NCBI GenBank assembly: GCA_963702845.1
Contig: OY969763.1
Span: 3,584,001 to 3,648,000 of the forward strand
Direction: 5' to 3'
Source: an uncultured Verrucomicrobiae bacterium
GTDB lineage: Bacteria > Verrucomicrobiota > Verrucomicrobiia > Limisphaerales > Palsa-1400
DNA: 64,000 nucleotides
Of the stretch, positions 35,428 through 56,433 are shown piece by piece. The notes beneath the pieces are model-generated. The model worked only from the letters and a program-made list of their open reading frames with translations. It was not told the DNA's origin and ran no database searches. How positions within the stretch are numbered: position 1 is the first letter of the stretch; each line of letters opens with the position of its first letter. The position numbers and the translations under genes are program-made.

Positions 35428-35660
35428 TTCCCATTCCTTCCCTTTCTTTCCCATTCCTTCTCTTTGGAGAAACATGGAGAAACATCCGAGAAGAGTTGGA
35501 GAAACTTCGGAGAAACTCTTTAGCGATAAAGTTGCCCCAATGTTTCTCCGTTGCGGCTTCTTGCGAAAGCCTGCGAAAAATAAAAATTATTTTTTTTGGC
35601 GTTATGAGCCGTTATAAAGCGTTATGAACCGTTATGACCCGCTTTGAGGCGTTACAGGCG
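35428..35660. repeat. Four distinct arrays of 10-11 bp tandem direct repeats
   Basis: ttcccattcc x3.5 (35428-35465); ggagaaacat x5 (35466-35518); ttgcgaaagc-like x3 (35551-35580); gttatgaacc-like x6 (35601-35660). Confidence 0.85.
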
Positions 35661-35807
35661 TAACGGATGATGTCGTAGCAACTTTGTATGCGTCCAAATT
35701 CGTCGGCAGGTAACAAAAAAGTTGCGCTGCCCGGTTTCCATACACTGCTTCCGTGTCGGCTCGGGTCTGCAAAACACCCCTGGCGTCGTGTCGATCCCTG
35801 GTTCCCG

Positions 35808-35819
35808 TGTCAAAGAGCA
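35808..35819 (-). promoter_or_regulatory. boxA-like Nus antitermination site
   Basis: Minus strand TGCTCTTTGACA, one mismatch to E. coli rrn boxA TGCTCTTTAACA, preceded by short hairpins. Confidence 0.6.
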
Positions 35820-35878
35820 CCAAGCAAAGCTTGGAACCACCTTGTTAAGGTGGATGCTGCCATTTTAGCAGCGGCTGT

Positions 35879-35907
35879 ATATTATAATGAAGTAGCGGCT
35901 TAGTCAA
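35879..35907 (-). promoter_or_regulatory. Near-consensus sigma70 promoter
   Basis: TTGACT (35907-35902), 17 bp, TAATAT (35884-35879), overlapping a TATAAT at 15 bp spacing. Confidence 0.62.
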
Positions 35908-36404
35908 ATCGTTTTGCGTTCTTTGAGCAATGCTTCGAGATCGAGGGGATGGGTGAACATCTGGAGGTTGCCTTGTGCGTCGCGGGGCCATTCAGCCTGT
36001 GGACGGTCCCAGTAGAGTTCGACGCCGTTGTTGTCGGGGTCGCGGAGATAGAGGGCTTGGCTGACGCCGTGGTCGGAGGCGCCTTGGAGTTGGATTCCGG
36101 CAGCGATGAGCCTGCTCAAGGCGTCGGCGAGTTCGGCGCGCGTCGGATAGAGAATAGCCACATGATAAAGGCCGGTCGTGCCGTCGGCGGGTGGCCGGCC
36201 GTCTTTGCTCTCCCAGGTGTTGAGGCCGATGTGATGATGGTAGCCGCCGGCGGAGAGGAATGCGGCTTGTGTGCCGTAACGTTGGGTGAGTTGGAATCCA
36301 AGGATATCGCGATAGAAAGCGAGGGCGCGATCGAGGTCGGCGACCTTCAAATGAACGTGGCCGATTCGGACGTCGGGATGGATCGTTTTTGCGGTCGTTT
36401 GCAT
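35904..36404 (-). CDS. VOC/glyoxalase family protein (CatE-like)
   Basis: IGHVHLKVADL, GGYHHHIGLNTW, GLYHVAI, DHGVSQALYLRDPDNNGVELY. Confidence 0.9.
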   Translation of the reverse strand: MQTTAKTIHPDVRIGHVHLKVADLDRALAFYRDILGFQLTQRYGTQAAFLSAGGYHHHIGLNTWESKDGRPPADGTTGLYHVAILYPTRAELADALSRLIAAGIQLQGASDHGVSQALYLRDPDNNGVELYWDRPQAEWPRDAQGNLQMFTHPLDLEALLKERKTI

Positions 36405-36458
36405 GACAGGTGCAAGTTGGTGTCAACGGTGGGCTGGGTCAAATGAGGCGTGGTGGAG

Positions 36459-36688
36459 GTCGAAAGTCGAAAGTCGAGGGTCGAGGGCTAAGGACGGAAC
36501 GAACTGAAGGCGCGGAGGTTTCACAGAAGGGAACGAAGTGGGACCGCGAAATGCGCTAAATGCGCTAAATGCGCGAATGGATTCAGTTGGATGAGAGTAG
36601 AACTAACCGCTGAACCGCTGAAAGGGATGGCCGCGAAAAGGCACAGAAGGCGCACAAGGGATTATTTGGAAATCAGGAACTCAGGAAA
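36459..36688 (+). repeat. String of different 7-9 bp-period short tandem repeats
   Basis: gtcgaaa/gtcgagg x4; gcgctaaat x3-4; aaccgctg x2; gcacagaag-like; tcaggaac x2-3. Confidence 0.7.
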
Positions 36689-36822
36689 TGGTTGTGGTCG
36701 ATAGTCGAAGCCAAAGTCACTGCATTGGATGTTCAGTGTGTGTGTTTTACAGCAACAAAAATCCTTTCACTTTCCCACCCCGTCGCGTAAGACATTCCAG
36801 GACTCCGGCGAATCAACCAAAC

Positions 36823-37065
36823 GTGAACAACGACTCTAATTCCAAATCCAAAAAGATTTCCGACGGTTCAGCCTTTGAATTGGAAGCACAGCTTTGGGCC
36901 GCAGCCGAGAAAATCCGCGATTTCATTCTCGCCAACTTGCCATTCAACATGAGCGATTGGGGCGACGAAAATCTCCGTCAGGAAATGCGCTGGAAGTTCG
37001 GGATGCTGTCCCGCCTTTCCGCGCTGCTGTCGGACGAGTTGCGCGTAAAGGAGGCTTATGCCTGA
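36823..37065 (+). pseudogene. Collapsed type I R-M remnant (hsdM start, hsdM motif IV, hsdS end)
   Basis: [13 protein letters not shown] (HsdM N-terminus), [28 protein letters not shown] (NPPF motif degenerate to NLPF), LLSDELRV (HsdS C-terminal LLSGELRV-like). Confidence 0.75.
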
Positions 37066-38047
37066 AGCACAAAAACGACATCGCCGAATGTTTTCGGTAA
37101 GTCACGAACTCGTCGAAAAATCGCGAGAGGCGGCCTTGGCGGCTGTTCAGATCTTCAACAATCCTCAAGTCACTTTCAAATCAGAGATATTCATCGTTTT
37201 GATGAACATCGCGTGGACATATCTTTTACATGGCTACTACCGAAAAAAAGGGATTGAGTATCGCTACTTTGAATTGAAAGGCAAAATCCGCCGATTCGAT
37301 CATACCAAGGCTGGTGCTTACAAATATTGGGAGCTAGAACGCTGCTTGAACGAGAAAAACAGCCCTGTAGATAAAGATACGTCGAACAACCTTGGATTTC
37401 TAATTGGGATACGGCACGAAATTGAGCATCAAATGACAACTCGAATTGATGCCTCGCTAAGCGCGAAATTCCAAGCCTGTTGCCTAAACTACAACGATTA
37501 CGTCAAAAAGCTTTTTGGTAACGAGTTGGGCATTGATAAGCATCTTGCGTTCAGCCTGCAGTTCTCTTCCATTTCTCGTGAACAAGCGGACACGTTAGGA
37601 GCCGCATCGAACCTCCCCAGCCATATCAAAAGCTTTGTCGATGGTTTTGAAGGCAAACTTTCGGATGAAGAGTTTAACAGCCCCAAGTTTGCCTATCGCG
37701 TGCTGTTTGTGGCAAAAACCGCAAATCGTAAGGGACAAGCCGATCAGGTGGTCGAATTTGTGAAGTCTGATAGCGAACTGGCAAAGCAAGTTAACGCGAC
37801 ATATGTCATCACAAAAGAGACAGAGCGACAGAAATATCGGCCGGGAAAAATTGTCGCCATAATGCAGAAAGATGGTTTCAAGGCTTTCAATATGCACGAA
37901 CACACGGAATTCTGGAAAGCCGAAGATGCAAAAATGGATGGGAAAGGTTTCGGTGTGTTAGTCGAAGATTGCTGGTATTGGTACGAACCTTGGCTCGAAA
38001 AAGTGCGAGAGCATTGCAAAGCAAATGAAGCCCATTACAAACAATAA
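37058..38047 (+). CDS. DUF3644 family protein (HEPN-type RX4H motif)
   Basis: [19 protein letters not shown]...[20 protein letters not shown] motif at 37412-37429; RBS aaggagg 37048-37054; visibly AT-richer. Confidence 0.8.
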
Positions 38048-38109
38048 TTCCAGCAGGCTAGCGCTGCCCTCGAGCGAGTTGCGCGCGCCCAAACTTCAGA
38101 ACTGAGTCC

Positions 38110-40205
38110 ATGCCGTACAATCCTACACGTGCTCTCCAACTCCTGCGCCTCGGCACGCAGAATCCCGCTGCCGCCTTCCATGACAGGCAGGAAGCAGCCA
38201 TAGAACATGTGGTGGACGGCCGCGGGCGTTTATTGGTTGTACAAAAGACTGGCTGGGGCAAAAGCTCGGTATATTTCATTGCGACCAAGCTGCTGCGTGA
38301 AGACGGGCTTGGACCGGCCATATTGATTTCGCCACTGCTGGCTTTGATGCGGAATCAAATTGCAGCGGCAGAACGGATGGGTGTTCGTGCTGTGACCATC
38401 CACTCCGGAAATCGTGACGAGTGGAATACATTGAGACGGCCATAGCTCGAAACGAAGTAGATATCCTCCTCATCCACCCGAAGCGTCTGATGAACGAACA
38501 GTTCAACACTCAGGTGCTGGCTCGAATCGCTGGAACCGTTTCGATGTTGGTCATAGATGAAGCTCATTGCATTTCGGATTGGGGCCATGATTTTGTTCCC
38601 GAGTATCGCCTCATTGAGCGACGGATTCGGCTGCTACCGCAGAATCTGCGCGTGCTGGCAACCACTGCGACCGCAAACAACCGAGTGATGGAGGACTTGG
38701 AAACGGTGCTCGGGCCGAATCTGGCAGTGTTGCGTGGGGATCTGAGCCGTTCTACTTTGCTGTTGCAAACCATGCGAATGCCAAGTCAGGCAGAGCGGCT
38801 GGCGTGGCTTGCAACCCACCTCCCGAACATCCCAGGCAGCGGCATCATCTACGCGCTGACGCAACGTGACGCCGAGTGCGTAGCTGCGTGGCTGAAATTG
38901 CGCGGACTGGCTGTAGAGGCATACCACAGCGGTCTCGCACCAGAACACACTAATGCCTTGGAAGACGGACTCCTCGCGAATGAGGTAAAAGCATTGGTTG
39001 CCACCACCAAGCTTGGCATGGGCTTCGACAAACCAGACCTTGCCTTCGTGATTCACTACCAGACGCCCGGTTCGGTCGTTGCTTACTACCAACAGGTGGG
39101 CCGTGCCGGACGAAATCTTCCTGCCGCACTTCCTGGAGCGCACGCAGTATTACTGAGCGGCAGAGAAGAGACCGATATCACAAATTATTTCATCGGGAGT
39201 GCCTTTCCCACAAGGGACGAAGTGGCGGCTGTGTTGGCCGCACTCGCTACGGAAGCGGAAGGTCTTTCAATAAACGGATTGATGGAGCGGGTGAATGTTA
39301 GCTACGGAAGAATCGAGAAAGCGCTGTTGCTCATGTCGCTGGAATCGCCTGCGCCGATTGCCAAGCAGGATAGCAAATGGACGTTAACAGCATCGAATCT
39401 GAGCGAGGAATTCTGGCAACGTGCCGAACGATTGACTGCACTACGCCGAACCGAACAGTCACAGATGCAGGAATATGTTCAGATTCAGAACGGCCACATG
39501 GAGTTTCTGATACGTGCGCTTGATGGTGATCCCAGTCTGTATCATCCCCCCAATCTCGCGCCGCTATCAGCGACCGTAAGCGCAATTATCGCAAGAGATG
39601 CTGTGGCATTCCTACGGCGAACAAGTCTTCCCCTGGAACCTCGCAAAAAATGGCCGCCGGGAGGTCTCGCGAGTATCGGCGTGCGTGGTAATACAAACAT
39701 AGCGCCGGAGCAGAATCTACGGTCAGGAAAAATTCTGTGCATGTGGGGAGACGCCGGTTGGGGCGAGTTGGTTCGCTTAGGGAAGTATCACGATGGCCAT
39801 TTCTCAGACGATCTGGTGACCGCCTGTGCGACTCTGGTTCGGGAATGGTCACCCGTCCCTGCACCGCAATGGGTGACGAGCATTCCTTCTCTTCGCCATC
39901 CAAACCTCGTGCCAGACTTCGCGCGACGCCTCGCCGCCGCCTTGAATTTGCCATTCCAGCCCGTGCTGCAAAAGTCAGACATGCGCCCGCCGCAAAAAGA
40001 GATGGCGAACAGCAGCCAGCAGGCACGGAACGTGGACGGCTCTCTACGGATTCAGGGCAATGTGCCGACGGGTCCTGTGCTGCTAGTGGATGATATGGTA
40101 GATTCAAAGTGGACTTTGACGGTTGCCGCTTATCTTTTAACCTCAAACGGCAGCGGGCCGGTGTATCCTTTGGCACTGGCTTCAACTGCAAACTCTGACG
40201 AATGA
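38110..40205 (+). CDS. recQ: RecQ-family helicase with C-terminal phosphoribosyltransferase (ComF-like) domain (frameshift near 38425)
   Basis: QKTGWGKS, ISPLLALMRNQ, DEAHCISDWGHDF, TATA, LGMGFDKPD, YYQQVGRAGR; C-terminal VLLVDDMVDSKWTL. Confidence 0.88.
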
Positions 40206-41491
40206 TCGAGCCGCTTACACCAAATACGCAAGCCATCCTGTTACTGACCGCCCCGCTGATCGCCGGACGCAGTGATTCATCGCGCGATCTGCTTACCTTG
40301 GGCGAATACAACCGGCTCGCCCGCATTCTGCGGGAGAAGCAGAAGCAGCCCGCCGATTTGATCGGACCAGACGCAGAGGAGTTAATCGGGCTTTGTGCGC
40401 AGCCTTTTGGCAGGGCGCGATTGGACGCGCTGCTCGGGCGAGGGTTTTTGCTCAGTCAGGCAGTGGAGCGGTGGAACACACGGGCGATTTGGGTAATCAG
40501 CCGGGCGGATTCACGTTATCCCAAGCGTCTGAAAGCACGGCTCAAGGAAGACGCTCCGCCGCTGCTTTATGGCTGCGGCGAAATTGCTTTGCTGGAAAAA
40601 GGCGGTTTGGCGGTCGTCGGTTCGCGACATGTGGATGACGAACTCATCAGTTTCACAGAGGATGTGGGGCGGCTTGCGGCAAAGGCGCACCGAACCATCA
40701 TCTCCGGCGGAGCGAAAGGAATTGATCGGGCAGCAATGCATGGCGCTGTACTCGCGGACGGCGATGTCGCAGGCGTAATGGCGGACAGTTTGGAACGGGC
40801 AGCGTTGGCGCGAGATAATCGGGAGCCTTTGATGGAGGGCCGACTGATTCTAATTTCTCCTTATGATCCGGCAGCGGGATTTAATGTGGGGCACGCGATG
40901 CAGCGCAATAAGGTCATCTACGCACTTGCCGATGCGGCTTTAGTGGTGACTTCAGATTTTGAAAAGGGAGGCACTTGGACGGGGGCGATAGAGCAGCTTG
41001 AACGTTTTCATTTTGTTCCGGTATTTGTGCGGAATGGAAGCAATGCTGGGCGTGGAAACTCGGCGCTCATCCAGCATGGTGGGTCGCCATGGCCGAATCC
41101 GAAGGATGCAGAAGAACTAGGTCAGATGCTTTCGGCAGCACTGGAATCGGTGGCTGCGGAACCGAAACAGGAAGCGCTTTCATTCGCGCTCAAGGAGCAA
41201 CCAATTGTTTACAGGGCCTCGGCCAAGGCAGTCGAGCCTGCCACCATCGATGATGCGCCCAAAGTAAGTTCGTCCCCAGCCGAAGAACTTTTCAAAACCG
41301 TGCGAGAGATACTGAGACGGGAACTTGTGGTTGGCCAAACTGAAGCGGAGATCGTGAGTTTGTTAGATGTCACCAAGTCCCAAGCAAAGGAGTGGCTGAC
41401 CAAACTGATGAAAGAAGGAACGATCGAGAAAGTCAAAAAAACCAAGCCAGTTCAATATCGGGCATCAACGGTCTCTGACCGGCTGCTTTAA
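40202..41491 (+). CDS. dprA: DprA/SMF (SLOG) family protein with C-terminal wHTH
   Basis: YPKRL..PPLLY, AVVGSR, ISGGAKGID, MQRNKVIYALAD, GGTW; ATGA overlap with the helicase stop. Confidence 0.88.
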   Translation: MIEPLTPNTQAILLLTAPLIAGRSDSSRDLLTLGEYNRLARILREKQKQPADLIGPDAEELIGLCAQPFGRARLDALLGRGFLLSQAVERWNTRAIWVISRADSRYPKRLKARLKEDAPPLLYGCGEIALLEKGGLAVVGSRHVDDELISFTEDVGRLAAKAHRTIISGGAKGIDRAAMHGAVLADGDVAGVMADSLERAALARDNREPLMEGRLILISPYDPAAGFNVGHAMQRNKVIYALADAALVVTSDFEKGGTWTGAIEQLERFHFVPVFVRNGSNAGRGNSALIQHGGSPWPNPKDAEELGQMLSAALESVAAEPKQEALSFALKEQPIVYRASAKAVEPATIDDAPKVSSSPAEELFKTVREILRRELVVGQTEAEIVSLLDVTKSQAKEWLTKLMKEGTIEKVKKTKPVQYRASTVSDRLL

Positions 41492-41590
41492 TGAGCTGGG
41501 AACATTTGCCGATTGAAATTGACTACAAGAACACCGCAGGTCGGCCCAAAACAAGCCCGACTCCTCTGCGCTGAGTAGGCTGGTTAAAAT

Positions 41591-41734
41591 AAAAACCCAC
41601 GGATTACGAAAAAACGCAATCCGTGGTTTGGAAATGAACCTGCGGCGCGCGGCGGAACGCCGCCCGAACTCGCAGGCGGGACGCCTGCGCTACCCACAAA
41701 AAAACCACGGAGCGCTAAATGCGATCCGTGGTTT
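41591..41734 (-). terminator. Two similar terminator hairpins downstream of tsf, flanking a REP
   Basis: ccacggatt/aatccgtgg (41597-41626) and aaaccacgga/tccgtggttt (41702-41734), each preceded by an A-run on +. Confidence 0.75.
41672..41693 (-). repeat. GTAG-type REP
   Basis: Minus strand GTAGC-GCAGGCG-TCC-CGCCTGC. Confidence 0.7.
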
Positions 41735-41778
41735 GGAATTGTTTATCGGAACCGCTTGCTGACGCGCGCAGCTCTGTT

Positions 41779-42621
41779 TTAAGCGGTTTTTTCGCCGACT
41801 TGGAAGCGGACGAAGCGGCGGATAACGATTTCGTCACCTAATTGCTTCGCGATGCTGCCTAGGTGCTCTTTGACGGAGACTTCGGAGTTGCGCTTGACGA
41901 AGCCTTGGTCAACTAAGCAATGGGTCTGGTAGAACTTTTCCAGTTTGCCTTCGACGATTTTGGCGATGGCTTGCGGTGGTTTGCCTTTGACTTGTTCGGC
42001 GGCGATTTCCTTTTCCTTGGTCAGGACGTCGGGATTAATCTCGTCGCGGTGAACGGCGTGCGGGCTGCCAGCAGCAATCTGCAAGGTGATGTCGCGAACG
42101 AGTTGTTTGAAGTCGTCGGTGGCGACGGTCGAGTCTTTGCCAGCGCCGACTTCCACCAATACACCAACTTTCGCACCGGTGTGGATGTAGGCGGCAACCA
42201 TTCCGCTGCCGTTGATTTCAAAACGGACGAAGCGCGGGATCTGGATGTTTTCACCTGTCTTGGCGACAGCGGCGACGCGGTCGGGTTCGAGCGACGCGAT
42301 GGTCGCGCCGGTGGCGAATTTTTTGGCGACGTCATCGCAGAAGGCTTTGAAGCTTTCGTTGCGGGCGACGAAGTCGGTTTCGCAGTTGATTTCGGCCAGG
42401 ACACCGACTTTGGAGCCGGGCTGGATGTATTGCGCGATCAAGCCGTCTTTGGCATCGCGATCGGCCTTTTTGGCGGCAGTAGCGACGCCTTTTTTGCGCA
42501 GGAGATCGACAGCGGCTTCGACGTTGCCGCCGGTCTCGACTAAAGCTTTTTTGCACTCCATCAGGCCTGCGCCTGTGAGTTCGCGCAGTTTGCCCACGCT
42601 TGCAGCAGTAATTTCGCTCAT
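41779..42621 (-). CDS. tsf: Elongation factor Ts
   Basis: LRELTGAGLMECKKAL, EINCETDFVARN, IVEGKLEKF. Confidence 0.97.
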   Translation of the reverse strand: MSEITAASVGKLRELTGAGLMECKKALVETGGNVEAAVDLLRKKGVATAAKKADRDAKDGLIAQYIQPGSKVGVLAEINCETDFVARNESFKAFCDDVAKKFATGATIASLEPDRVAAVAKTGENIQIPRFVRFEINGSGMVAAYIHTGAKVGVLVEVGAGKDSTVATDDFKQLVRDITLQIAAGSPHAVHRDEINPDVLTKEKEIAAEQVKGKPPQAIAKIVEGKLEKFYQTHCLVDQGFVKRNSEVSVKEHLGSIAKQLGDEIVIRRFVRFQVGEKTA

Positions 42622-42705
42622 TTTATAAAATGGTTGAGGGTTGAGGGTTGATGGGCGGAAAAGCTAATGCTTCTCCGCCCACCGATATTCTCTCGCCCGT
42701 TATTG

Positions 42706-43500
42706 TTAGGCGGTGGCCGGAGCGGGTTCCGCAGCGGGTGCGGGTGCAGCAGCCGGCGCAGGTGCCGAGGCCTGCTCTTCAGCAGCGTCGCGACGGCGAA
42801 CGTGTTTGGCCACGTATTCGGCGCGAGCCTGGGTGATCGTTTGCACGACGGTTTGCAGGATCAAACGCACGGAACGAATGGCGTCGTCGTTGGCGGCGAT
42901 AGGATATTCGACGAGGTCAGGATCGCAGTTGGTATCAACAATGGCGATGATCGGGATCTTCAAGCGACGCGCTTCAGCGATGGCGTTGTGTTCGCGCTTG
43001 ATGTCGACGACGAACATGGCTTGCGGAAATTTTTCGAGCATACCGCGAACGCCGTCGAGGTTCTTGAACAAACGGGCGGCTTCACGGCGATACATGGATT
43101 GCTCCTGTTTGCCGTATTGATTGATGCTGCCGTCGGTTTCCCATTTTTCAATGGTCTTGAGACGCTTGATGGAGCGTTCGACGGTTTTGAAATTCGTTAA
43201 GGTGCCGCCGAGCCAACGTTCGGTGACATAGTATTGACCGCAGGTCTTGGCCGATTCTTTGACGGCTTCCTGGGCTTGCTTCTTGGTGCCGACAAACAAA
43301 ATTTGTCCGCCACCGGAAACGATCTTGCGCATGAATTCGCAAGCTGCGTCGAGTTGGGCGAGGCTCTTGCTGAGGTCGATGATGTGGATGCCGTTGCGGG
43401 CGTCGAAGATGAATTTCTTCATCTTGGGGTTCCAACGTTTGGTCTGGTGACCGAAATGAACGCCTGCGTCCAACAATTCTTTAATACCAATGCTGATCAT
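42706..43500 (-). CDS. rpsB: 30S ribosomal protein S2
   Basis: [47 protein letters not shown]. Confidence 0.97.
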
Positions 43501-43723
43501 AATTTTCCTTTGTTAAAGACTCACTCGAAATTATATCGAGTCAGCCATCCCGCGGAACACGGGATTGATTTAGGTGTTGTTATGGCCGCCACCCTCACGC
43601 GAGGATGACCGGAAGCTCCGGCTGCCGTTTAGACCATTTTCCTTATGGCACCGAACTTCGGTTCCAAAAGGGCCGGTAAACGTAACAGACGGAGCGCATT
43701 GCGCCAATTGTTTTTTGCAAATT

Positions 43724-44251: not shown

Positions 44252-44253
44252 AT

Positions 44254-45144: not shown

Positions 45145-45195
45145 GAGACGTTATCCGAATTCAATCTGCGGCTAAAACGAGCTTTTCAGCGCGAA

Positions 45196-46207: not shown

Positions 46208-46239
46208 AAAAAAACCGCGATGCATTGGCTGCATCGCGG
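46208..46239 (-). terminator. Rho-independent terminator
   Basis: ccgcgatgca/tgcatcgcgg stem with an A7 run on + (U-tract on -). Confidence 0.8.
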
Positions 46240-46263
46240 AATACAAAAAGTTAATTGTAGGCG

Positions 46264-46898: not shown

Positions 46899-48305
46899 TT
46901 ATTGATCTGACGCGTTGGCGTTTTGGGAAGCATTCGGATTGATGGCGGCGGCTTGTTTGGCTTTCCGTGCTTGTTTTCTGGCTTTTTTGGCTTGCGCGGC
47001 TGGACCGTTCTTTTCAGCCGGGGCCTGGATGCCTCCGGCGGGATTGAGTTCGTCCAAGACGCCTTGAAGGTGTTTGCGCTCGGCGGTAGCCGCTTGGTCT
47101 TGACTGTCTGAGGACACGAGAATCTCTTTGAACGGAGCCCCGCGCATGTCGAAGAGTTCGCTGGATTCGTTCAGTTTCCAGTCGCGGTCACGGTCGAACC
47201 ATTTGCGGCCGAGTTGGACGTAGATCCAGTCGCGCGGCCAAGTGGAAGATTGGCCGAGGAGTTGCGGGGCGAAGGTTCGGCCGTCGATGATGCGTTTCGG
47301 CGGCAGTGTTGCGCCGGCGATTTCGGCGATGGTGGGATAGAAATCGGTGATGTTGATGAGGGCTTCAGTGACTTTGCCAGCGGGGACTTTTCCGGGCCAA
47401 TTGGCGAGGCTAGGAACGAGTGCGCCGCATTCGAGCATGGTGGCTTTGTGGCCGCTGAGGTCTTTGCCGTGGACGGTGCAGCGCGTGTACCACGGCGCAG
47501 CTGTGCCGTTGTCGCCAGCGAAAAGGATGAGGGTGTTGTCGCGCAATTTCAGACGGTCGAGTTCGGTTACAAGTTTACCGATGAGTTTGTCCATGTAAGT
47601 GACGTTATCTTTGTATATTTGAAAAAGGTCTTTGGTGCCGGGCGCGGTGTCGGGTGTGCGCAGGATTTGGCCGTGAACGTGGGACATCGGATAGTAGAGA
47701 TAGAAAGGCTGGTCCTTGTGGCGGTTGATGAAGTCGACGACGAATTTGTGCATGACGTCGGGCAGGTATTCGCCGTCGTGCAACGGAACTTCTTTGCCGT
47801 TGAGTGTGTAGAACTTGGCCTGGGGTTGGGTGTTCCAGTATTTGCCGCTGCCGACGAAGCGCAGGTATTCATCAAACCCCCAATCGCCGGGTTGCAGCGG
47901 CAGTTGAGCCCATTTGCCGCACTGGGCGGTGACGTAGCCCGCTTGTTTGAGGATGACGGGCATCATGGTTTCGTTGGCGGGTTTGAGGAGGTTTCCGGTG
48001 TCGTTGCGGGTCATACCGGTGTGAAAAGCGTATCGGCCGGTCATGAGCAACGCGCGAGACGGACCACATAGCGGCGCGGCATAGCAATGGTCAAAGCGCA
48101 AGCCGTCTTTCGCAAGGGCGTCGAGGTTCGGCGTCTTGAAGTTGTCGGCGCCGTAGCAACTGACGTTGCCGATGCCAAGGTCGTCGGCGAGGATAAAGAT
48201 GATGTTTGGTTTGGCCGGTGCGCCGTGGGATAGACAAGCGAACAAAACGAGGAAACAAGCAGTGAGGATTGGTTTGGTTTTCACAATATTATGCAACGAT
48301 GCCAT
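46899..48305 (-). CDS. Sulfatase (formylglycine-dependent, arylsulfatase-like)
   Basis: PNIIFILADDLG, LCGPSRALLMTGRY (CxPxR), GKW, GDNG; signal peptide. Confidence 0.93.
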   Translation of the reverse strand: MASLHNIVKTKPILTACFLVLFACLSHGAPAKPNIIFILADDLGIGNVSCYGADNFKTPNLDALAKDGLRFDHCYAAPLCGPSRALLMTGRYAFHTGMTRNDTGNLLKPANETMMPVILKQAGYVTAQCGKWAQLPLQPGDWGFDEYLRFVGSGKYWNTQPQAKFYTLNGKEVPLHDGEYLPDVMHKFVVDFINRHKDQPFYLYYPMSHVHGQILRTPDTAPGTKDLFQIYKDNVTYMDKLIGKLVTELDRLKLRDNTLILFAGDNGTAAPWYTRCTVHGKDLSGHKATMLECGALVPSLANWPGKVPAGKVTEALINITDFYPTIAEIAGATLPPKRIIDGRTFAPQLLGQSSTWPRDWIYVQLGRKWFDRDRDWKLNESSELFDMRGAPFKEILVSSDSQDQAATAERKHLQGVLDELNPAGGIQAPAEKNGPAAQAKKARKQARKAKQAAAINPNASQNANASDQ

Positions 48306-48456
48306 GGGGTCGGGTAAACAGACGCGGGCGGGAAGGGTTGGTTACAAGACTTACGTCGCTCACAACTATTCAACCGCTGTGTATGGAGGCCATCCACTCC
48401 AAAAACTCGCCCGAATTGTAATTGGAAATTCTCCGCCCGAAGCCTAAAGTTGCCTC

Positions 48457-49050
48457 ATGGATACCCAAATCCTGCTGAGCATTTGTGTCGGGATCGGTTT
48501 GAGCGCAGCGTGCGGTTTCCGCGTGTTCGTTCCCCTGCTCGCTGTCAGCATCGGCGCGCTGACCGGGCACCTTCACCTCGCACAGAATTTTGCGTGGATT
48601 GGCAGTAAACCCGCGCTCATCGCTTTCGCCGTCGCGACCGTTTTCGAAATCGGTGCATATTACATTCCATTTCTCGACAACGTTCTCGACACAATCGCCG
48701 GTCCAACAGCTGCAATCGCCGGCATCCTGGTAACCGCCTCGGTAATGGCCGACGTGGATCCGATGTGGCGCTGGACTCTGGCCGTTATCGCTGGCGGCGG
48801 CATCGCAGGCTCAACCCAGCTCGCCACCACGAAACTGCGCCTCGCCTCCAGCGCAACCACAGGCGGATTTGGCAATCACGTCCTGTCCACGATCGAAGCG
48901 GTATTTTCGTCCGGCCTTTCTTTTCTGGCGATTGCTCTGCCCGTAGTTGCCGTTCTTTTCGTCATCATTATTCTGATCGCTTGCTGGCTGTTGATTTACG
49001 CCATCGGCAAACGCCTCTTCCGCTGGCTTCGACCAAAGCCAGCGGCTTAG
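48457..49050 (+). CDS. DUF4126 membrane protein
   Basis: GIGLSAACGFRVFVPLL, EIGAYYIPFLDNVLD, TTGGFGN. Confidence 0.85.
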   Translation: MDTQILLSICVGIGLSAACGFRVFVPLLAVSIGALTGHLHLAQNFAWIGSKPALIAFAVATVFEIGAYYIPFLDNVLDTIAGPTAAIAGILVTASVMADVDPMWRWTLAVIAGGGIAGSTQLATTKLRLASSATTGGFGNHVLSTIEAVFSSGLSFLAIALPVVAVLFVIIILIACWLLIYAIGKRLFRWLRPKPAA

Positions 49051-49054
49051 GGTC

Positions 49055-50425
49055 ATGGAAGCGCTACTGCTCATTGTTATTGTTGGCGCGTTCATCGCAA
49101 TCGTTGTCGACCTGCTCGAGCAACTGCCCACAATCGAAAGCCACAAAATCCGAAAGTGGCTCATCGCATGGTTTATCAAAGGCGTCATCGTCCCAATCGT
49201 GGTCTGGATGCTTTTCAACATGGGCGTGTTCCAAAACCTGCCCGATTTTGTTTCGTCCCGAATGCTCCAAAAAATGGGTGGTGTGAATCGCGATGCCACG
49301 CTCCTGCTCATATTCGTCGGCGTCATCGTGATTACCACGTATTGGACAGCGCTCACGTCTGGTTGGCTCCTTGCCATGTTAACTTCTTACGATCTCGACG
49401 GGCGCGAGGTCTTTAAACGTATTCGTTGGCTCGCGGTTCTGTTAAGTCCGCTCGCGCTGTTGATTGTTGCGTCCTTCGGCTGGGGCGCACTTGGTGTCGC
49501 CGGGACCGTGTGGTTGCTGCCGGTCGTGAAAGCCGCTGGTTCCGTCACCGGCGAACCCAAGCGTCGGACCCGTCCTACTTATTCCAAAGCCGCTGTTCAC
49601 CTCCAGCGCGGCAAATACGAAGACGCAGAACAGGAGGTCCTCGCCGAACTGGAACGATGCCAGGATGATTTCGACGGCTGGATGCTTCTCGCCGATCTCT
49701 ACGCCAATCACTTCAACGACCTGCCCGCTGCGGCACGCATGATTAATGAAACCTGCGACCAGCCTACAACCACTATTTCTGAAATCGCCGTCGCATATCA
49801 CCGACTCGCCGATTGGTATGTGAAACAGGATAACAATTCCAATGCCGCGATCGAAGCTCTCGAGCAAATATGCCGTCGCTATCCCAACACCCACGTCGAG
49901 CGCATGGCGCGCTTGCGCATCCGCAACATCAGCGGCGAAGAAGAACAAAAACCCACCGCAAGCCGCACGATTCGGCTCCCATCGCTAGGCAAAGAAATAG
50001 AGCGCGAGAGTCCGAGCGAACAGAATGTTGAAGCCGCTGCCGCTCAAGCCCGTCGTTACTCTGAGATCCTGAAGAAAAACCCCAACGACCTCGCCGCCCG
50101 CGAAACATTTGCGCGCGTCCTTGCTGAACAGCTGGGCAAAGCCGATGTCGCGATCGAACAACTCGAATCTTTGCTCGACCTCGCCGCAACCGACGAAGCC
50201 GCTCAAGCCAGAATTCCAGAGTGGCTCTCGCTCATCAGCTCATGGCAATTAAAATATCGCAACGACGAACCCGCCGCTGTTGCAATAATGAAACGCCTCG
50301 TCCGCGATCATTCGAGTACCGCCCAAGCCTTCGCCGCGCAACGCCGGTTGCACATGATCGAAATGGAACACCGGATGCGCAGGCATCGCGATTCACGCGC
50401 ACTCACAGGATTATCCGAAACGTAA
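49055..50425 (+). CDS. Membrane protein with TPR-like C-terminal domain
   Basis: Several N-terminal TM segments, then helical TPR-like repeats. Confidence 0.65.
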   Translation: MEALLLIVIVGAFIAIVVDLLEQLPTIESHKIRKWLIAWFIKGVIVPIVVWMLFNMGVFQNLPDFVSSRMLQKMGGVNRDATLLLIFVGVIVITTYWTALTSGWLLAMLTSYDLDGREVFKRIRWLAVLLSPLALLIVASFGWGALGVAGTVWLLPVVKAAGSVTGEPKRRTRPTYSKAAVHLQRGKYEDAEQEVLAELERCQDDFDGWMLLADLYANHFNDLPAAARMINETCDQPTTTISEIAVAYHRLADWYVKQDNNSNAAIEALEQICRRYPNTHVERMARLRIRNISGEEEQKPTASRTIRLPSLGKEIERESPSEQNVEAAAAQARRYSEILKKNPNDLAARETFARVLAEQLGKADVAIEQLESLLDLAATDEAAQARIPEWLSLISSWQLKYRNDEPAAVAIMKRLVRDHSSTAQAFAAQRRLHMIEMEHRMRRHRDSRALTGLSET

Positions 50426-50432
50426 TCCCACT

Positions 50433-50804
50433 CTACTTCTCGATCGGAAGTTCGCTCTCCTTCCAGGCCTCAAAGCCACCTTCCATCTCCACCACGGGAT
50501 AGCCGCGACTCGCGAATTCAACGGCTGCTTTCGCAGCGAGATGGCATTGCTGCGTGTAGCAATAAAGAATGTTCCGTTTGTCCTTCTCCAATCCTTCGCA
50601 CGTTGACCATTTGTCTGGCGGACAATTCGTCGCGCCTGGAATGTGCCCCTTCGCGTAATCGTCTGCATAACGGACATCGATGACGTTTACGTCCTCGTGT
50701 TCATCGATGAGATGGCTGACTTCGACAGGTCCAGTCGTAAACGAGAGTTTATCTTCGAAGAATTCTTTGCATTGAGCCGGATTTGGTAATTCAGCAGTTA
50801 ACAT
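50433..50804 (-). CDS. Rhodanese-like protein
   Basis: VIDVR..DYAKGHIPGA, LYCY, MEGGFEAW; RBS ggagg upstream of 50804. Confidence 0.88.
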   Translation of the reverse strand: MLTAELPNPAQCKEFFEDKLSFTTGPVEVSHLIDEHEDVNVIDVRYADDYAKGHIPGATNCPPDKWSTCEGLEKDKRNILYCYTQQCHLAAKAAVEFASRGYPVVEMEGGFEAWKESELPIEK

Positions 50805-50871
50805 ATTTACCTCCCTAATAAAACCAAACCCCGAAGCGCGATCCGGGCAAGTTGAAGTTGTCCGTCGCAAC

Positions 50872-53133
50872 TTAGAATCCGCGGAAATTACGGCAGGCAA
50901 AAAGCTGGACGCGGCGCATCACTCCGCGATCGGCATATTTCACATCAAATACCCCGAGGTCCGTGACCGATCCGAACTCTTTTGCGATATCCGGAGGAGC
51001 CGGTTTAAGCTTCAACGGTTCGTGACTAAACAAATCTCCTTCGCGATTCCACCAGCGCTTCACCCAATCGTCGCGCAACGGCTCACGATCAATCTCTCTC
51101 ATGAAAATCGCATTGTCTCCAAATCGATTCGTGTAGCTTGGCCAAAAATAAAACTGATTCGCCGGATGCGTGCTTGCTTCGAAATAAACCAGCGGTGCGT
51201 TCGCCACATTGGTTTTCGCTTCTGGTAGATAAAACGTCACCTGCGCAGTGAATCCATAATGCTCACCAATGATGAATGTCGGTTTACCTTCAGTCGCCAA
51301 TTGCGTTCTCACGTCACCCACAATCGCGGCCAATTCCTTCCAGCCATGAACGCGATGCAACAGATCTTTTGCCGGCGGTAAAGATCGACCGAGCATTTTG
51401 TCAATGAGCTTAGTATCGTGCGCTAGCACCACGGCAAGCCCACCCACAACAAGGCCAAGCACAATTCCGAATTTCAGAACCCACCTCAACAACCTCAGAA
51501 TCCCCTTCGACCATCCCTGAACGCGTGGCCATATATTTTGCCACCAAATGACCGTCAGCGTGAACCAGGGAATGACCGCAGGAACAATCCAGTTTTCCAA
51601 AATGCGCGTGTGAAAACTCAGAATGAAATAAAAGACAACCACCGGTGCTCCCATAGCGAACAGATAAACGTGCAGCGGCGTGCGATTTCTTTTCCAACAT
51701 AATGCCACGATCGTGGCCAATGTTCCGATGACATAGATTGGGTTCAGCAGGCCAAATTCGCTCGATACGAATCGGCGTACGAACTTCCATTGCAACTGCA
51801 ACTTCTCGTGGAGATTTCCATCTGTTGCGACATGCTCCACGGTGATCCATCCGTGTTGCGCATTCCAAATCAGAATTGGCAATGAGCAGAGGCCGACAAT
51901 TAGCAATGCAAGATACGGTCCCGCCGTTTTCAAATGCTTACGCGCGATTGGAACCAATGCAAACACCAACACCCAACTCAACAACTGAAACAGGTTCGTA
52001 TACTTGCTCAGTAGTCCAAGTCCCATCCAGACGCCAACGAGTAACCAATCGCGCAATGTTCCATTCTCCTGAACCGCGCGCCAACCAACAATCATCGCCA
52101 GCGTGTAGAAGAAAACCGATAGCGGATCGATCGTCATCAGAATCGAACCTAGTGCAATTAATGGAGCCGTCGTCGTAATCGCAACCAGCCAAACACCTGC
52201 ACGGGCATTCGCGACCCTTGCCATAAAACGCAAAACCGCCAACGACAATAACGCTCCAAATACTGGAGAGAAGAACCGCACCCCAAATTCGCTGTCACCC
52301 CAGATGTGCGTGCCGAGCCACTGCGTGTGCGCGATCATCAATGGCTTGCTGTAATAAGAAAGCGCCGGATGCTTCGACCAAATCCACTGATAGGCCTCGT
52401 CCTCGCTCAGTTCGAGTTTACCCGAAGCGAGAAAAAGCAACCGCGCCAACAGCAACACGCCAATCAGCACATAACCAAAGCGCAACCATTGGAGCTCGCG
52501 GGTCGCCGGGGTTGCTTCAATGCGCTTCTCGCTCGTCAGCCTCGGCTCCAGCAGCGACGGCATTTTATTGAACCAAATCGGAAACCAGCGCGGGCCGAAG
52601 TTCTTCCAAAGCGCATCCAGCGACCAAACAATTCCCGCGCCGTAACCGGCACCCAGAATTGTCCCTGCAAGCACATCGCTCGGATAATGCACACCATTGT
52701 AAATTCGCGATAACCCAACGAGAACGGCGATTGGCAGCATCACCCAGATACTCCGCCGATAGTAGATGAACGCGATCATCGTTACCGAAAACCAATTGGC
52801 CGCATGCGCCGATGGCATGCTGTAGCTCCCACCCATTCCAACCCGGAGGCCGACGTCCGGTAATCCGAGGAACGGCCGCGGCCGCGCAACAGCGTGCTTG
52901 ATCGTGTTCACAATGAGCCCATCTCCAATAATCAGTCCAAGCACCAACATGATGGCGCAGACCGGTCCCCGTCGTCCGCCCCTCCACACGAGCAGCACGA
53001 CAGCGAGTGCGATAAAAGTGCCGAAGTGCGGCGGTGAACTGGCGAAGGGCATCAGCCAATCGAAAAACGAATTGGACAGCGACGCGTTGATGAACCGAAA
53101 AAGGTTCACGTCGATAGTTTGGAGCCAGTGCAT
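50872..53133 (-). CDS. PAP2 phosphatase fused to ArnT/PMT-type (GT-C) glycosyltransferase
   Basis: N-terminal KHAVARPRP, SMPSAH, SRIYNGVHYPSD; then DEAYQWIW...YYSKP...GVRF...LSKY. Confidence 0.85.
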   Translation of the reverse strand: MHWLQTIDVNLFRFINASLSNSFFDWLMPFASSPPHFGTFIALAVVLLVWRGGRRGPVCAIMLVLGLIIGDGLIVNTIKHAVARPRPFLGLPDVGLRVGMGGSYSMPSAHAANWFSVTMIAFIYYRRSIWVMLPIAVLVGLSRIYNGVHYPSDVLAGTILGAGYGAGIVWSLDALWKNFGPRWFPIWFNKMPSLLEPRLTSEKRIEATPATRELQWLRFGYVLIGVLLLARLLFLASGKLELSEDEAYQWIWSKHPALSYYSKPLMIAHTQWLGTHIWGDSEFGVRFFSPVFGALLSLAVLRFMARVANARAGVWLVAITTTAPLIALGSILMTIDPLSVFFYTLAMIVGWRAVQENGTLRDWLLVGVWMGLGLLSKYTNLFQLLSWVLVFALVPIARKHLKTAGPYLALLIVGLCSLPILIWNAQHGWITVEHVATDGNLHEKLQLQWKFVRRFVSSEFGLLNPIYVIGTLATIVALCWKRNRTPLHVYLFAMGAPVVVFYFILSFHTRILENWIVPAVIPWFTLTVIWWQNIWPRVQGWSKGILRLLRWVLKFGIVLGLVVGGLAVVLAHDTKLIDKMLGRSLPPAKDLLHRVHGWKELAAIVGDVRTQLATEGKPTFIIGEHYGFTAQVTFYLPEAKTNVANAPLVYFEASTHPANQFYFWPSYTNRFGDNAIFMREIDREPLRDDWVKRWWNREGDLFSHEPLKLKPAPPDIAKEFGSVTDLGVFDVKYADRGVMRRVQLFACRNFRGF

Positions 53134-53161
53134 CGCTTGGTTGTTAGCGCGGAGACACTAG

Positions 53162-56041
53162 CTAACTGCCTAACGCCTCAAAAGCGTTTTTTAGCTGTTG
53201 CTGTTTGTTATGCCAATCGACGAGCCGCTGTTTGTGTTCGTCAATGACGTTGGCAGGGGCTTTGAGGAACGCGGGGTTCTTCAACTTGGCTTCCACTTTG
53301 TCGATCTCCGCCTGGACTTTCGCAAGCTCCTGTTCGAGCCGCGCCTTTTCCGCTGTGACATCGATCAATCCTTCGAGCGGCAAATATAAACTGCCCAAAT
53401 CAGCAATATGAACTGGCGTGCCCTTTGGTGGTTCGTATTCAGGATTAACGTCCAAAGATTCGGCATTGAGCAACAGCTTCATCACGGCGAGATCGTGCTC
53501 GGGCAGATCCTGCGCCGGCTTGAAAACAAACGGAACCCGTTTGCTCGCCTGAATGTTTGCCGTTTGCCGCAAATTGCGTCCGTTCACTATGAATGCGTTG
53601 CGGTCTTCGACGTATTTCAAATAGCAATCGTCGAGGCCGTAGAAATCGCGGAAGTCCTGGTCAAACGACTTCGGCCAGTTCGCGAACATGATCGTTTTAC
53701 CACCCTGGTTGTCCGGCAATTCCTGGTGGAAGCCCATGCCTTGCCAAAGCTCTTCGGTGATGAACGGCAAGAACGGATGGAACAAACGCAATGTGTTCGA
53801 CAAAACAAAATCAATGACGGCAAGCGTGTTCGCCTTGCGTGGCTCATCGGTGCTGTGCAAGGTCGGCTTGCAACTCTCGACATACCAGTCGCAAAACTCG
53901 CTCCAGAAAAATCGATACAGAACTTGTGCCGCCTCGTTAAACTTGTATTCGTTCAACGCCTCGGTCAGTTCGCGAATTGCTTGATCCAGCTTGAGCAGGA
54001 TCCATTTGTCGTCGTTCGTCAAAAGCTGCGGATTGATTTCGCCTTCCACTTCACCCGCGTGCATCTGACGGAACCGGCACGCGTTCCAAAGTTTGTTACA
54101 GAAGTTGCGCGCCAGTTCGACCTGCTGTTCATCAAACAATACGTCCTGTCCCAACGGTGCCGAGCGCATCACGCCGAACCGCAACGCATCCGCGCCGTAC
54201 GTTTTGATAAGATCAAGTGGGTCCGGCGAGTTGCCCAGACTCTTCGACATCTTGCGCCCCTGCTTGTCGCGGATGATGCCCGTGAAATACACGTTCCGGA
54301 ACGGCATCTCGCCCATGTATTCGTAACCCGCCATGATCATGCGCGCGACCCAGAAGAAAATGATGTCTGGGCCGGTGACGAGATCGGTCGTCGGATAAAA
54401 CTTCTTCAACGTGGGCGTCTTTTCCGGCCAACCCATGGTCGCAAACGGCCAGAGCCACGAGCTGAACCATGTATCCATCACGTCGGGATCCTGTTCGTAT
54501 CCAAGTTGCTTTAGTTCCTCTTCAAGTTCAGGCCAATCAGTCGCGACCGTAATTTTCAACCCATTCTCAACTGACACTAAGTCGAATCGCCAATTATAAT
54601 CTCCCATCGCAATACTTGTGTCCGCTGCATCCTTGGGCACGGGATTAGTTTTGCGGTTTACAGTTCCGGTAAGATGTTGGGCAGTGCCGGACTCTGGCCA
54701 AGCGAACAACTCTTTTGGACCAAGCTTCGGGCGTGCTGCCGCAAAGGTTTCTTTGGTGACAACTTTTGTCCATACCGGAATGCGATGCCCCCACCAAAGT
54801 TGCCGCGAGATGCACCAGTCCTGAATGCCTTGCATCCAGTGGGCATAAACTTTTGACCAGCGCTCGGGATGGAACTTCATGCTTCCATCTGCGACGCATT
54901 TGGTCGACGGCTCAAGGCTCGGATATTTCAAAAACCATTGTTCGCTCAGATATGGTTCGATCGGAACGCCCGCGCGTTCGCTGAAGCCAACATTATTCTC
55001 ATACGGCTTTTCTTCCACCATCGCGCCGATTTCTTTCAGCTTCTCGACGGCGACTTTGCGCGCCTCGAAGCGATCGAGCCCGCGCAGATCCGCGCCGGCC
55101 AAATCATTCATCGACGCGTCCGGATTCATGATGTTCACGAGCGCGAGCTTATGCCGTTGCCCGATTTCAAAGTCCGCCTTGTCATGCGCGGGCGTCACTT
55201 TCAACACGCCGGTGCCGAATTCAAAATCAACATGCTTATCGCCGATAATCGGAATCAGCTTTTGCTCCTGAGGCAATTCGACCGGCAGCGGTCGCACAAT
55301 ATGTTTCCCAATAAGATGCGCATAACGCTTGTCATGAGGATTCACCGCCACCGCTGTATCACCTGGAATTGTTTCCGGCCTGGTCGTGGCAATCGTCAAC
55401 CACGTATTCGGCTCTTCGGCAACCTGCACCTTGAAGTGATACATGAAGCCCTTCTGCGGTTTCATTTCCACTTCTTCATCAGACAACGCCGTCTGCGTCG
55501 CTGGACACCAATTGACCAAGCGCTTCCCGCGATAGATCAGGCCCTTCTTATAAAGATCAACAAACACCCTCGTGACGCACTGCACATATTCGGGGTCCAT
55601 CGTGAACCGCTCGCGTGTCCAATCGCACGAACAGCCCAGCTTCTTCAATTGATCGATGATGATGCCGCCGTGCTTTTCCTTCCACGTCCAAACGCGCTTA
55701 ATAAATTCCTCGCGCCCGATATCTTTCTTGGCCTTCTTCTCCTGCGCACGAATTTGCTTTGCCACAATGCCCTCGGTCGCGATCCCCGCGTGATCGGTCC
55801 CCGGCAACCAAAGAACTTCCTTCCCATCCATGCGCGCCTTGCGCGAGAGAATGTCCTGGATCGTGTTGTTGAGGACATGCCCCATGTGCAACACGCCGGT
55901 CACGTTCGGCGGTGGAATGACGATCGAGTATGCCGGCTTGGCAGAATGTTCGTTGCCGTGGAAGCACTTCTGCTCCAGCCAATAGGAATACCATTTCGAT
56001 TCAACCGACTGCGGTTCGTAAGCTTTTGGAATTTCAGCCAC
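53162..56041 (-). CDS. valS: Valyl-tRNA synthetase
   Basis: PPPNVTGVLHMGH, ATTRPET, DWCISRQLWWGHRIP, KMSKS, C-terminal coiled coil. Confidence 0.97.
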   Translation of the reverse strand: MAEIPKAYEPQSVESKWYSYWLEQKCFHGNEHSAKPAYSIVIPPPNVTGVLHMGHVLNNTIQDILSRKARMDGKEVLWLPGTDHAGIATEGIVAKQIRAQEKKAKKDIGREEFIKRVWTWKEKHGGIIIDQLKKLGCSCDWTRERFTMDPEYVQCVTRVFVDLYKKGLIYRGKRLVNWCPATQTALSDEEVEMKPQKGFMYHFKVQVAEEPNTWLTIATTRPETIPGDTAVAVNPHDKRYAHLIGKHIVRPLPVELPQEQKLIPIIGDKHVDFEFGTGVLKVTPAHDKADFEIGQRHKLALVNIMNPDASMNDLAGADLRGLDRFEARKVAVEKLKEIGAMVEEKPYENNVGFSERAGVPIEPYLSEQWFLKYPSLEPSTKCVADGSMKFHPERWSKVYAHWMQGIQDWCISRQLWWGHRIPVWTKVVTKETFAAARPKLGPKELFAWPESGTAQHLTGTVNRKTNPVPKDAADTSIAMGDYNWRFDLVSVENGLKITVATDWPELEEELKQLGYEQDPDVMDTWFSSWLWPFATMGWPEKTPTLKKFYPTTDLVTGPDIIFFWVARMIMAGYEYMGEMPFRNVYFTGIIRDKQGRKMSKSLGNSPDPLDLIKTYGADALRFGVMRSAPLGQDVLFDEQQVELARNFCNKLWNACRFRQMHAGEVEGEINPQLLTNDDKWILLKLDQAIRELTEALNEYKFNEAAQVLYRFFWSEFCDWYVESCKPTLHSTDEPRKANTLAVIDFVLSNTLRLFHPFLPFITEELWQGMGFHQELPDNQGGKTIMFANWPKSFDQDFRDFYGLDDCYLKYVEDRNAFIVNGRNLRQTANIQASKRVPFVFKPAQDLPEHDLAVMKLLLNAESLDVNPEYEPPKGTPVHIADLGSLYLPLEGLIDVTAEKARLEQELAKVQAEIDKVEAKLKNPAFLKAPANVIDEHKQRLVDWHNKQQQLKNAFEALGS

Positions 56042-56134
56042 AGGTCAGAATATTACAGGAGAGTTCGGCGAGGACAACTCTTGAGGTTTAGTGTGTCAGA
56101 TTGTCCCAAAGCAGCGCCAAAACTTTTCCGGGAA

Positions 56135-56303
56135 GGTGTATTTTGGTGTATTTAGGTGTATCCGGACGGTGGTTCTGCGGATTGATTAACATCTTTTGGT
56201 TTTGGTTTAAAAAAGTTTAAATTTGTTTAAATTAGGGTGGGCTGCGTGGATCGCAGGTAAATTTAGGCTCGGTTAACTTCGGTTAACCTCGGTTAGCTTC
56301 GGA
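56135..56303. repeat. Three distinct arrays of 10 bp tandem direct repeats
   Basis: ggtgtatttt x3 (56135-56164); gtttaaattt x3 (56205-56234); ggttaacttc x3+ (56271-56303). Confidence 0.85.
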
Positions 56304-56333
56304 TTATCGATAACGCTAAACTGAGCATCCGGA

Positions 56334-56345
56334 TTTCAAAGAACA
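56334..56345 (-). promoter_or_regulatory. boxA-like Nus antitermination site
   Basis: Minus strand TGTTCTTTGAAA. Confidence 0.55.
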
Positions 56346-56404
56346 TTACGGATTTCAGGTCTGGCCGAGAGTCCGCGGCCGGAATGCACCGGCGGTTGCT
56401 GCAT

Positions 56405-56433
56405 AGACTATAGTGAAGGTACGACAGTGTCAA
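56405..56433 (-). promoter_or_regulatory. Near-consensus sigma70 promoter
   Basis: TTGACA (56433-56428), 17 bp, TAGTCT (56410-56405), overlapping a TATAGT at 15 bp spacing. Confidence 0.62.

Follow-up and report, generated by a model that had tools for sequence, protein, structure and literature searches.

What a non-coding cassette made of a promoter, a boxA and stacks of short phased repeats is for is the question raised by two loci beside hisS and valS in a 64,000-nucleotide stretch of DNA (the window) from an uncultured Verrucomicrobiae bacterium, whose genome (G000) is a single contig of 6.03 Mb, 90% complete. The original prediction gave the two loci one shared minus-strand layout, and both cassettes were found where it had placed them (Table 1). 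Its promoters, TTGAC(T/A) with a 17-bp spacer and TAnnnT, were confirmed as TTGACT/TAATAT and TTGACA/TAGTCT, and its view that neither locus holds a credible ORF was borne out, the longest sense-strand ATG ORFs being 29 and 31 aa; ORFs this short argue against the tail of a decayed gene as the source of the cassettes. Four arrays span 35637-35426 in the hisS cassette and three span 56296-56133 in the valS cassette, both on the minus strand. Tandem Repeats Finder (TRF) listed six of the seven, with a period of 10 or 11; the degenerate TTTCGCA array is absent from its list. An Rfam search of the whole window gave no match at the gathering threshold, and searches with each cassette gave none at E<=1. 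To the earlier description can be added the spacer motif, the 5' hairpins, inverted copies that precede some arrays, and the recurrence of the repeat units at other cassettes. A CRISPR array was rejected as an identity, as the units run head to tail at 10/11 bp without spacers and Rfam has no match; no cas genes were seen beside the two window cassettes.

Table 1. Features of the hisS and valS cassettes and their neighbours (positions in the window)
Feature	Position	Strand	Remark
hisS cassette, sigma70-type promoter TTGACT-17-TAATAT	35879..35907	-	TTGACT 35907-35902, TAATAT 35884-35879
hisS cassette, promoter-spacer motif GCCGCTACTTCA; candidate regulator site	35888..35899	-	family consensus GYMGYDRCTTYA
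hisS cassette, three 5' hairpins in promoter-to-boxA interval	35820..35875	-	predicted by folding
hisS cassette, boxA TGCTCTTTGACA	35808..35819	-
Array 1, TCATAACGGC x4, 10 bp	35598..35637	-	core is the array 3' of terS at three loci
A/T tract directly after array 1	35597-35577	-
Array 2, TTTCGCA x3, degenerate, 10 bp	35551..35578	-
Inverted copy GGAGAAAC belonging to array 3	35549-35542
Array 3, GTTTCTCCAA x5, 10/11 bp	35463..35516	-	module common to 11 cassettes; no terS neighbour found
Array 4, GGAATGGGAA x3-4, 10 bp	35426..35462	-	no terS neighbour found
Short flanking repeat CCTTGCGTCCTTCGCG	35381..35402	-	type seen at some cassette edges
hisS	34071..35318	-	neighbour outside cassette
Glyoxalase-family gene	35904..36404	-	neighbour, start of accessory region
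valS cassette, promoter TTGACA-17-TAGTCT	56405..56433	-	TTGACA 56433-56428, TAGTCT 56410-56405; under scan threshold
valS cassette, promoter-spacer motif GTCGTACCTTCA	56425-56414	-
valS cassette, first 5' hairpin	56377..56395	-
valS cassette, boxA TGTTCTTTGAAA	56334..56345	-
Array 5, TAACCGAGGT x3, 10 bp	56266..56296	-	related to CCGAAC array before terS start, G000 4753165
Array 6, TTTAAAC x3 + CCAAAACCAAAAGATGTTA	56187..56233	-	terS-terL junction module, elsewhere running into terL start codon
Array 7, ATACACCTAA x3, 10 bp	56133..56162	-	also in congener's valS cassette; no terS neighbour found
valS own candidate promoter TTGTCC-16-TAATAT	56050..56077	-	kept in G001, without cassette here
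valS	53162..56041	-	neighbour
Truncated, frameshifted small-gene copy	56408..56692	-	intact copy about 3 kb from rpsJ cassette

Several cassettes adjoin accessory islands. The island in the window (36688-41491) is defence-like, with an N6-methylase fragment, a DUF3644 gene, a split DEAD helicase gene and a DprA/SLOG protein gene. A separate class of 7-9 bp tandem repeats (36457-36689, 56484-56513) edges accessory DNA, and a PIN-domain gene at 60725-61135 may form a toxin-antitoxin pair with the adjacent ORF. The rpsJ cassette carries the ATACACC array that it shares with the valS cassette. The truncated gene copy at 56408-56692, with its intact counterpart near the rpsJ cassette, suggests that flanking DNA moves with the cassettes.

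The two loci are members of a dispersed family of about fifty, wider than was first reported, with at least 48 cassettes in G000 that have the TTGAC promoter, the conserved spacer motif, 5' hairpins and boxA. A promoter-plus-boxA search returned 52 matches in G000 and 7 in the reversed sequence; of the 52, 45 are intergenic by our gene calls. The counting set is the 48 that start with TTGAC (four were dropped, and a few other known cassettes lie outside it). A loose promoter regular expression (104 matches, control 151) and a weight-matrix scan (101, control 65) were not specific alone. Arrays of 10/11-bp period lie downstream of boxA in 40 of the 48 and upstream in 2. The expected association of boxA with downstream periodicity held for the 68 TG[CT]TCTTTGA sites in G000 also, where at least three period-10/11 marks were found downstream of 20 and upstream of one, against a background of 135 in 5000 random 450-mers. 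Intergenic periodicity in G000 peaks at 10 (1532) and 20 (1352); the count at 11 is 677, and periods 7 and 14 form a class of their own. Array clusters with at least six marks number 98, and 110 of the 126 with at least five are intergenic. Array modules are shuffled, with at least 21 orders among the 48 cassettes for the 15 patterns scored. There is no replichore bias, the leading strand carrying 24 of the 48. Short flanking repeats occur at 7 of 48 cassette edges against 45 of 2136 in the background, and neither terminal inverted repeats nor target duplications were noticed in an informal look. The forecast of a dispersed, apparently undescribed non-coding family is upheld by the number of cassettes, the lack of an Rfam match and a literature search that found no description in main texts, though supplements could tabulate such elements. 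The family is real, built from known packaging parts and apparently undescribed; its new points are the boxA leaders, the stacked array types, the turnover of arrays at orthologous loci, the contrast between viral and chromosomal loci, and the bias towards aminoacyl-tRNA synthetase (aaRS) genes.

The 12-mer likened to boxA is credible as such, since the rrn leader of the same genome has TGCTCATTGAAA, close to the cassette consensus YGYTCTTTGAMA, and the NusB and Rho families are both encoded in G000. Over the 48 cassettes the boxA columns are near-invariant, which is partly built into the search pattern. Two NusB-family matches lie at G000:C1 5110923 and 3888377, and two Rho RNA-binding-domain matches at 4238664 and 2028759. 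The LexA box is TGTTC-N4-GAACA, and the boxA-like sites do not fit it. Cassette leaders fold better than shuffled sequences (mean z -1.69, 33 of 48 below -1) when compared with an upstream control (-0.09, 9 of 48); the stem sequences vary between cassettes, and boxA is more unpaired. For whole-cassette RNA, z is -4.5 at hisS and -1.8 at valS, and no intrinsic terminator follows the arrays in either. In the available part of the published account, the Bacillus subtilis rrn leader has a hairpin followed by boxA, and AUGAUCUUUGAAA binds NusB (PMC13753749). The rrn and CRISPR boxA leaders treated there are like the cassettes in placing a 5' hairpin and then boxA before untranslated RNA, and unlike them in that the cassettes hold neither structural RNA nor spacers between constant repeats. 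A hairpin and boxA lie directly 3' of a terS stop codon at G000:C1 3107973 (minus strand) and at locus L083, and a boxA cassette and a terS promoter stand back to back at G000:C1 1783424-1783460 and 1875559-1875595.

Turnover of repeat units at orthologous loci, another expectation, was found in the congeners. The hisS cassette of G002 has a similar promoter and first hairpin and the boxA CGATCTTTGAAA, with entirely different arrays; its valS cassette is shorter and has only the ATACACC array in common with G000. In G001, also of this genus, the candidate valS promoter is conserved and there is no cassette at valS. At hisS loci of other genera boxA was present in 0 of 16, one of them having a short array. 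The promoter motif was counted 37 times in G000 (control 3), 19 in G002 (2), 2 in G001 (2), and 0-2 in 28 other genomes of the family, and promoter plus boxA 21 times in G000 and 0-3 in 120 genomes of the order. Among the genomes searched, the expansion is confined to one genus. G000 and G002, whose synonymous sites differ at 42-62%, share one non-coding module with 91% identity over 137 nt.

Clustering of the ORFs beside arrays yielded two multi-copy families related, in different degrees, to the small terminase (TerS). Family B, with about 13 loci in G000 (16 matches counting pieces), is a Mu-gp27-like TerS; one copy exceeds the cut-off for PF11985, and PHROG 426 is matched at E 8e-10. Seven of its loci, among host genes, are followed by terL, and one of these also by a portal gene. 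Six aligned full-length TerL copies keep Walker-like ATPase and nuclease motifs. The seven solo terS-terL pairs, among host genes and without capsid genes, lie at G000:C1 2301953-2305865, 2758758-2761080, 2183025-2185238, 2594969-2597513, 3497671-3499985, 4753165-4755668 and 5838310-5840969; one terL is split. In G000, terS and terL are also represented by many stubs and frameshifted copies. The gp27-like profile has matches in 17 of 121 genomes of the order, with 11-18 in four of them. The TerS model has a confidently predicted N-terminal helical domain (residues 31-100); a fold search with the family B model (pTM 0.37) against the PDB gave nothing at E<=0.001, and a viral search with a single G000 TerS protein found none. 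Family A is a 123-aa protein with an HTH and a long helix, in seven copies (L001:1292-1663 and six paralogs), and is only weakly TerS-like; the viral search found no relative, and a fold search of its model against viral structures gave nothing at E<=0.001. Arrays adjoin the family A gene at 23 of 30 loci (four from G000). Its array stacks are convergent to the 3' end of the gene, and 11 and 16 matches occur in other genomes of the order.

Three of the seven array types in the window adjoin terS genes elsewhere in G000; the other four have no terS neighbour, and the cassettes themselves lack terS. The hisS TCATAACG array (TAACG) matches those found 3' of terS at three G000 loci, the valS TTTAAAC-CCAAAACCAAAAGATGTTA module matches the terS-terL junction at three loci (TT[AC]AAC), and the valS AACCGA array resembles a CCGAAC array 5' of the terS start at one locus. 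Three further cassette array types stand at terS 5' ends in G001 and G002, and arrays were found at 13 of 22 terS loci of five relatives. The terS genes at 274329 and 2131622 have closer HTH regions, yet different arrays. Mobile-element proteins had been proposed as partners of the arrays, with Xis and BldC as examples. The general proposal stands, the array-linked proteins being small-terminase-like HTH proteins; the examples do not, as no Xis or BldC gene recurred beside arrays among the neighbour-clustering matches listed. A third promoter-like element, the palindrome CACTTGGAC-N-GTCCAAGTG, was seen at G000:C1 2301890 and at least seven more sites (plus strand), and precedes four terS genes and several short ORFs.

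Phased arrays are a trait of solo terS genes on chromosomes, not of their phage relatives. In A2, a sister terS subfamily absent from the G000 query set, a period-10 array lies at the gene start or stop in 49 of 80 chromosomal loci, the best of 173, and in 0 of 48 viral loci; period-10 marks number 458, against 15-70 at other periods. The core RTCMRRS, a motif chosen after the arrays had been inspected, is repeated in tandem in 77 of the same best 80 loci on the sense strand, in 3 of 80 on the antisense strand, and in 6 of the 48 viral loci, which are longer. A search of viral contigs for one exact array pattern found 0. After the A2 gene, a long ORF of one cluster, presumably terL from its motifs, follows in 32 of 48 viral loci and in 0 of 71 chromosomal ones. 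Part of this contrast could be an effect of clade, since the viral members are more distant. The arrays are not simply phage pac sites, since true viral homologs lack them.

Another promoter subtype combines the core of the cassette promoter with TTTCCCT repeats upstream of it. It was found at 29 sites in G000 (control 0), among them those in front of the prohead protease/capsid and connector (adaptor)/portal genes, of four terS genes and of one boxA cassette. The head module (L264, G000:C1 5239999-5251132) encodes a protease, capsid, connector, portal and a terL with an in-frame stop. The capsid gene is single-copy, with 89-90% identity to its counterpart in each congener and 75-77% to those of two further genera, a dN/dS of 0.10-0.17 and synonymous divergence like that of hisS and valS; the capsid-connector-portal order is kept in relatives. 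It is present in all three genomes of the genus and in two neighbouring genera; 7 of 31 genomes of the family match and 24 do not, and in G003 and G007 the capsid is present and the promoter motif absent. Judged from these sequence comparisons, the module is vertically inherited and under purifying selection. Two tail families, PF10145 and PF04984, were searched for and not found in G000, a genome 90% complete. Host genes separate the head genes from an HTH repressor gene and a probable DnaB-like ORF 13-17 kb away. A second head module (L265, G000:C1 1732453-1741249) has a DUF4055 gene, a Gp13-like capsid and other promoters.

At just under an even chance, we read the cassettes as gene-less, recombined stacks of pac-like, putative TerS-binding tracks that serve a domesticated packaging system. 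A ring-shaped TerS would wrap the arrays with its HTH domains and recruit TerL, so that each cassette might act as a multi-specificity, pac-like start for the packaging of host DNA, destined for the cell's own tail-less heads or for those of a helper phage. The hairpin-boxA leader would keep Rho from stopping RNA polymerase on its way through the untranslated arrays. Homologous recombination may then carry a cassette with its flanks into related genomes, in which case copies next to conserved genes, for instance those of synthetases and ribosomal proteins, would be at an advantage. The pac-track reading draws on the one-turn phasing, the units that flank terS and terL, the shared promoter core, the shuffling and replacement of modules, the A2 contrast and the selection on the capsid gene; against it, four window arrays lack a terS neighbour in G000, true viral homologs lack arrays, terS copies with closer HTH regions can have different arrays, and boxA and 5' hairpins are needless for a purely DNA role. 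Against a working particle are the two tail families not found, the stop in the module terL and the 24 of 31 family genomes without capsid. An extended version is unlikely: site-directed gene transfer in which tail-less heads, a sequence-specific TerS panel and some fifty antiterminated, swappable array cassettes, mostly near core translation genes, would program packaging or the interception of phage terminase.

By analogy, the cassette would work most like a pac region in a GTA-like setting. In the portions of the SPP1 and SF6 literature available, the SPP1 pac contains direct repeats and coincides in part with promoters and with the start of terS (PMC6316719, PMC4737164), TerS and TerL suffice for its cleavage (PMC6316719), and the SF6 TerS HTH binds pac non-specifically, ignoring the box repeats and favouring bent DNA (PMC4737164). 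The SF6 behaviour weakens a sequence-specific reading of the arrays and fits their conserved phase. SPP1/SF6 pac is alike in having direct repeats at promoters and at the start of an HTH small-terminase gene, the promoter overlapping the site; as described in those portions, it is unlike the cassettes in having one copy per phage genome, against about 50 on the G000 chromosome, no demonstrated specific reading of repeats, no stacked different arrays and no Nus boxA, the SPP1 'boxA' being an unrelated name. Gene transfer agents of the RcGTA type are alike in that the host carries their head and terminase genes, which are passed on vertically and have a promoter in common; in the available text RcGTA has no discrete packaging start sites (PMC7947584). 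No adjacent replication or integrase genes were seen at the solo terS-terL loci, a GTA-like trait; unlike such agents, G000 yielded no tail genes of its own for the two families searched. A tail-less head that might be completed with phage tails is a likeness to cf-PICIs; on the part of the preprint available, these are compact self-packaging mobile islands, whereas the G000 genes are dispersed and the capsid diverges with core genes (bioRxiv 10.1101/2025.02.11.637232). The PeSL of T4-type phages, repeated promoter and stem-loop modules that act as exchange points, are also similar; as far as the available text goes, they belong to phage genomes, have a terminator function and flank swapped genes, without boxA or phased arrays (PMC4122927). 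Identity with PeSL was rejected on the chromosomal location, the hairpins followed by boxA, and a payload of arrays, not genes.

Four other readings have to be weighed against pac-like tracks. The neighbouring genes raise the possibility of translation-gene leaders or roadblock sensors, in which TerS binding would stop antiterminated read-through into synthetase and ribosomal-protein genes. Among the 28 co-oriented neighbours are five aaRS genes, S1, S10, S15, YebC, a DEAD helicase and an S4-FtsJ methyltransferase (five synthetase, three ribosomal-protein and three other translation-linked genes), and the synthetases are over-represented (5 of 28 against about 0.14 expected from an estimated 25 or so synthetase genes among 5093 called G000 genes). 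Yet 20 of the 48 cassettes face a convergent gene, co-orientation with the downstream gene (28 of 48) equals the background of 0.58, the promoter of valS stands between the arrays and the gene and is kept in a congener without a cassette, and no boxA cassette was found at the 16 hisS loci of other genera, all of which makes this reading very improbable. The suggestion that the cassettes are regulatory leaders of aaRS genes finds no support: random orientation, valS's own promoter and the different hisS arrays of a congener argue that they are not synthetase leaders. A T-box or other aaRS leader RNA was rejected too, there being no Rfam match and no fixed position upstream of aaRS genes. Stable non-coding RNAs, with hairpins and Nus antitermination and with repeats that mimic the surroundings of terS/terL starts and stops and so titrate an RNA-binding regulator, would suit the well-folded leaders and the hisS cassette RNA, the strand-specific arrays and the rrn-like order of hairpin and boxA (PMC13753749, in the part available). 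They are improbable given the modest valS value, the absence of an intrinsic terminator after the arrays, GTAGC/GAAGT arrays that echo the untranscribed promoter spacer, and dozens of unit spellings that keep a 10/11-base period; it is this phase that favours a role as double-stranded DNA over an RNA sponge.

The replacement of arrays at one site between two congeners, the many module orders, a 137-nt module conserved beyond synonymous sites and the cassettes beside accessory islands would suit an anti-phage decoy library, in which arrays and solo TerS titrate or misdirect the terminase of invading Mu-like phages, with the result that host DNA is packed into the heads or the chromosome is cleaved, and array turnover reflects an arms race. 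Decoys, however, should match phage sites, and neither arrays at the 48 viral terS loci nor one exact array pattern in viral contigs was found; host TerL and head genes are, moreover, under purifying selection. We regard the decoy library as quite unlikely. A similarly low probability attaches to the idea of relics, selfish or neutral: PeSL-like modules of promoter and hairpin that stayed behind when the terS body between arrays was lost, that recombination between similar copies multiplied, and whose arrays would have no present role. The terS/terL stubs and frameshifts, random strand and replichore, expansion in one genus among those searched and excess of flanking short repeats are as relics would predict; the high non-coding conservation between congeners, the boxA columns, near-invariant partly through the search pattern, and the one unit core kept across the whole A2 subfamily are not.

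How TerS chooses its start site is unsettled, and the cassettes and terS loci supply numerous natural pairings of a TerS with an array, each spelled differently, on which recognition of sequence or of shape is directly testable. The predicted boxA leaders of the cassettes would extend boxA antitermination beyond rRNA, suhB and CRISPR leaders. If the cassettes are decoys, they would represent a non-coding defence against phage packaging; if they direct packaging, they would constitute host-encoded, programmable gene transfer in soil-type Verrucomicrobiota.
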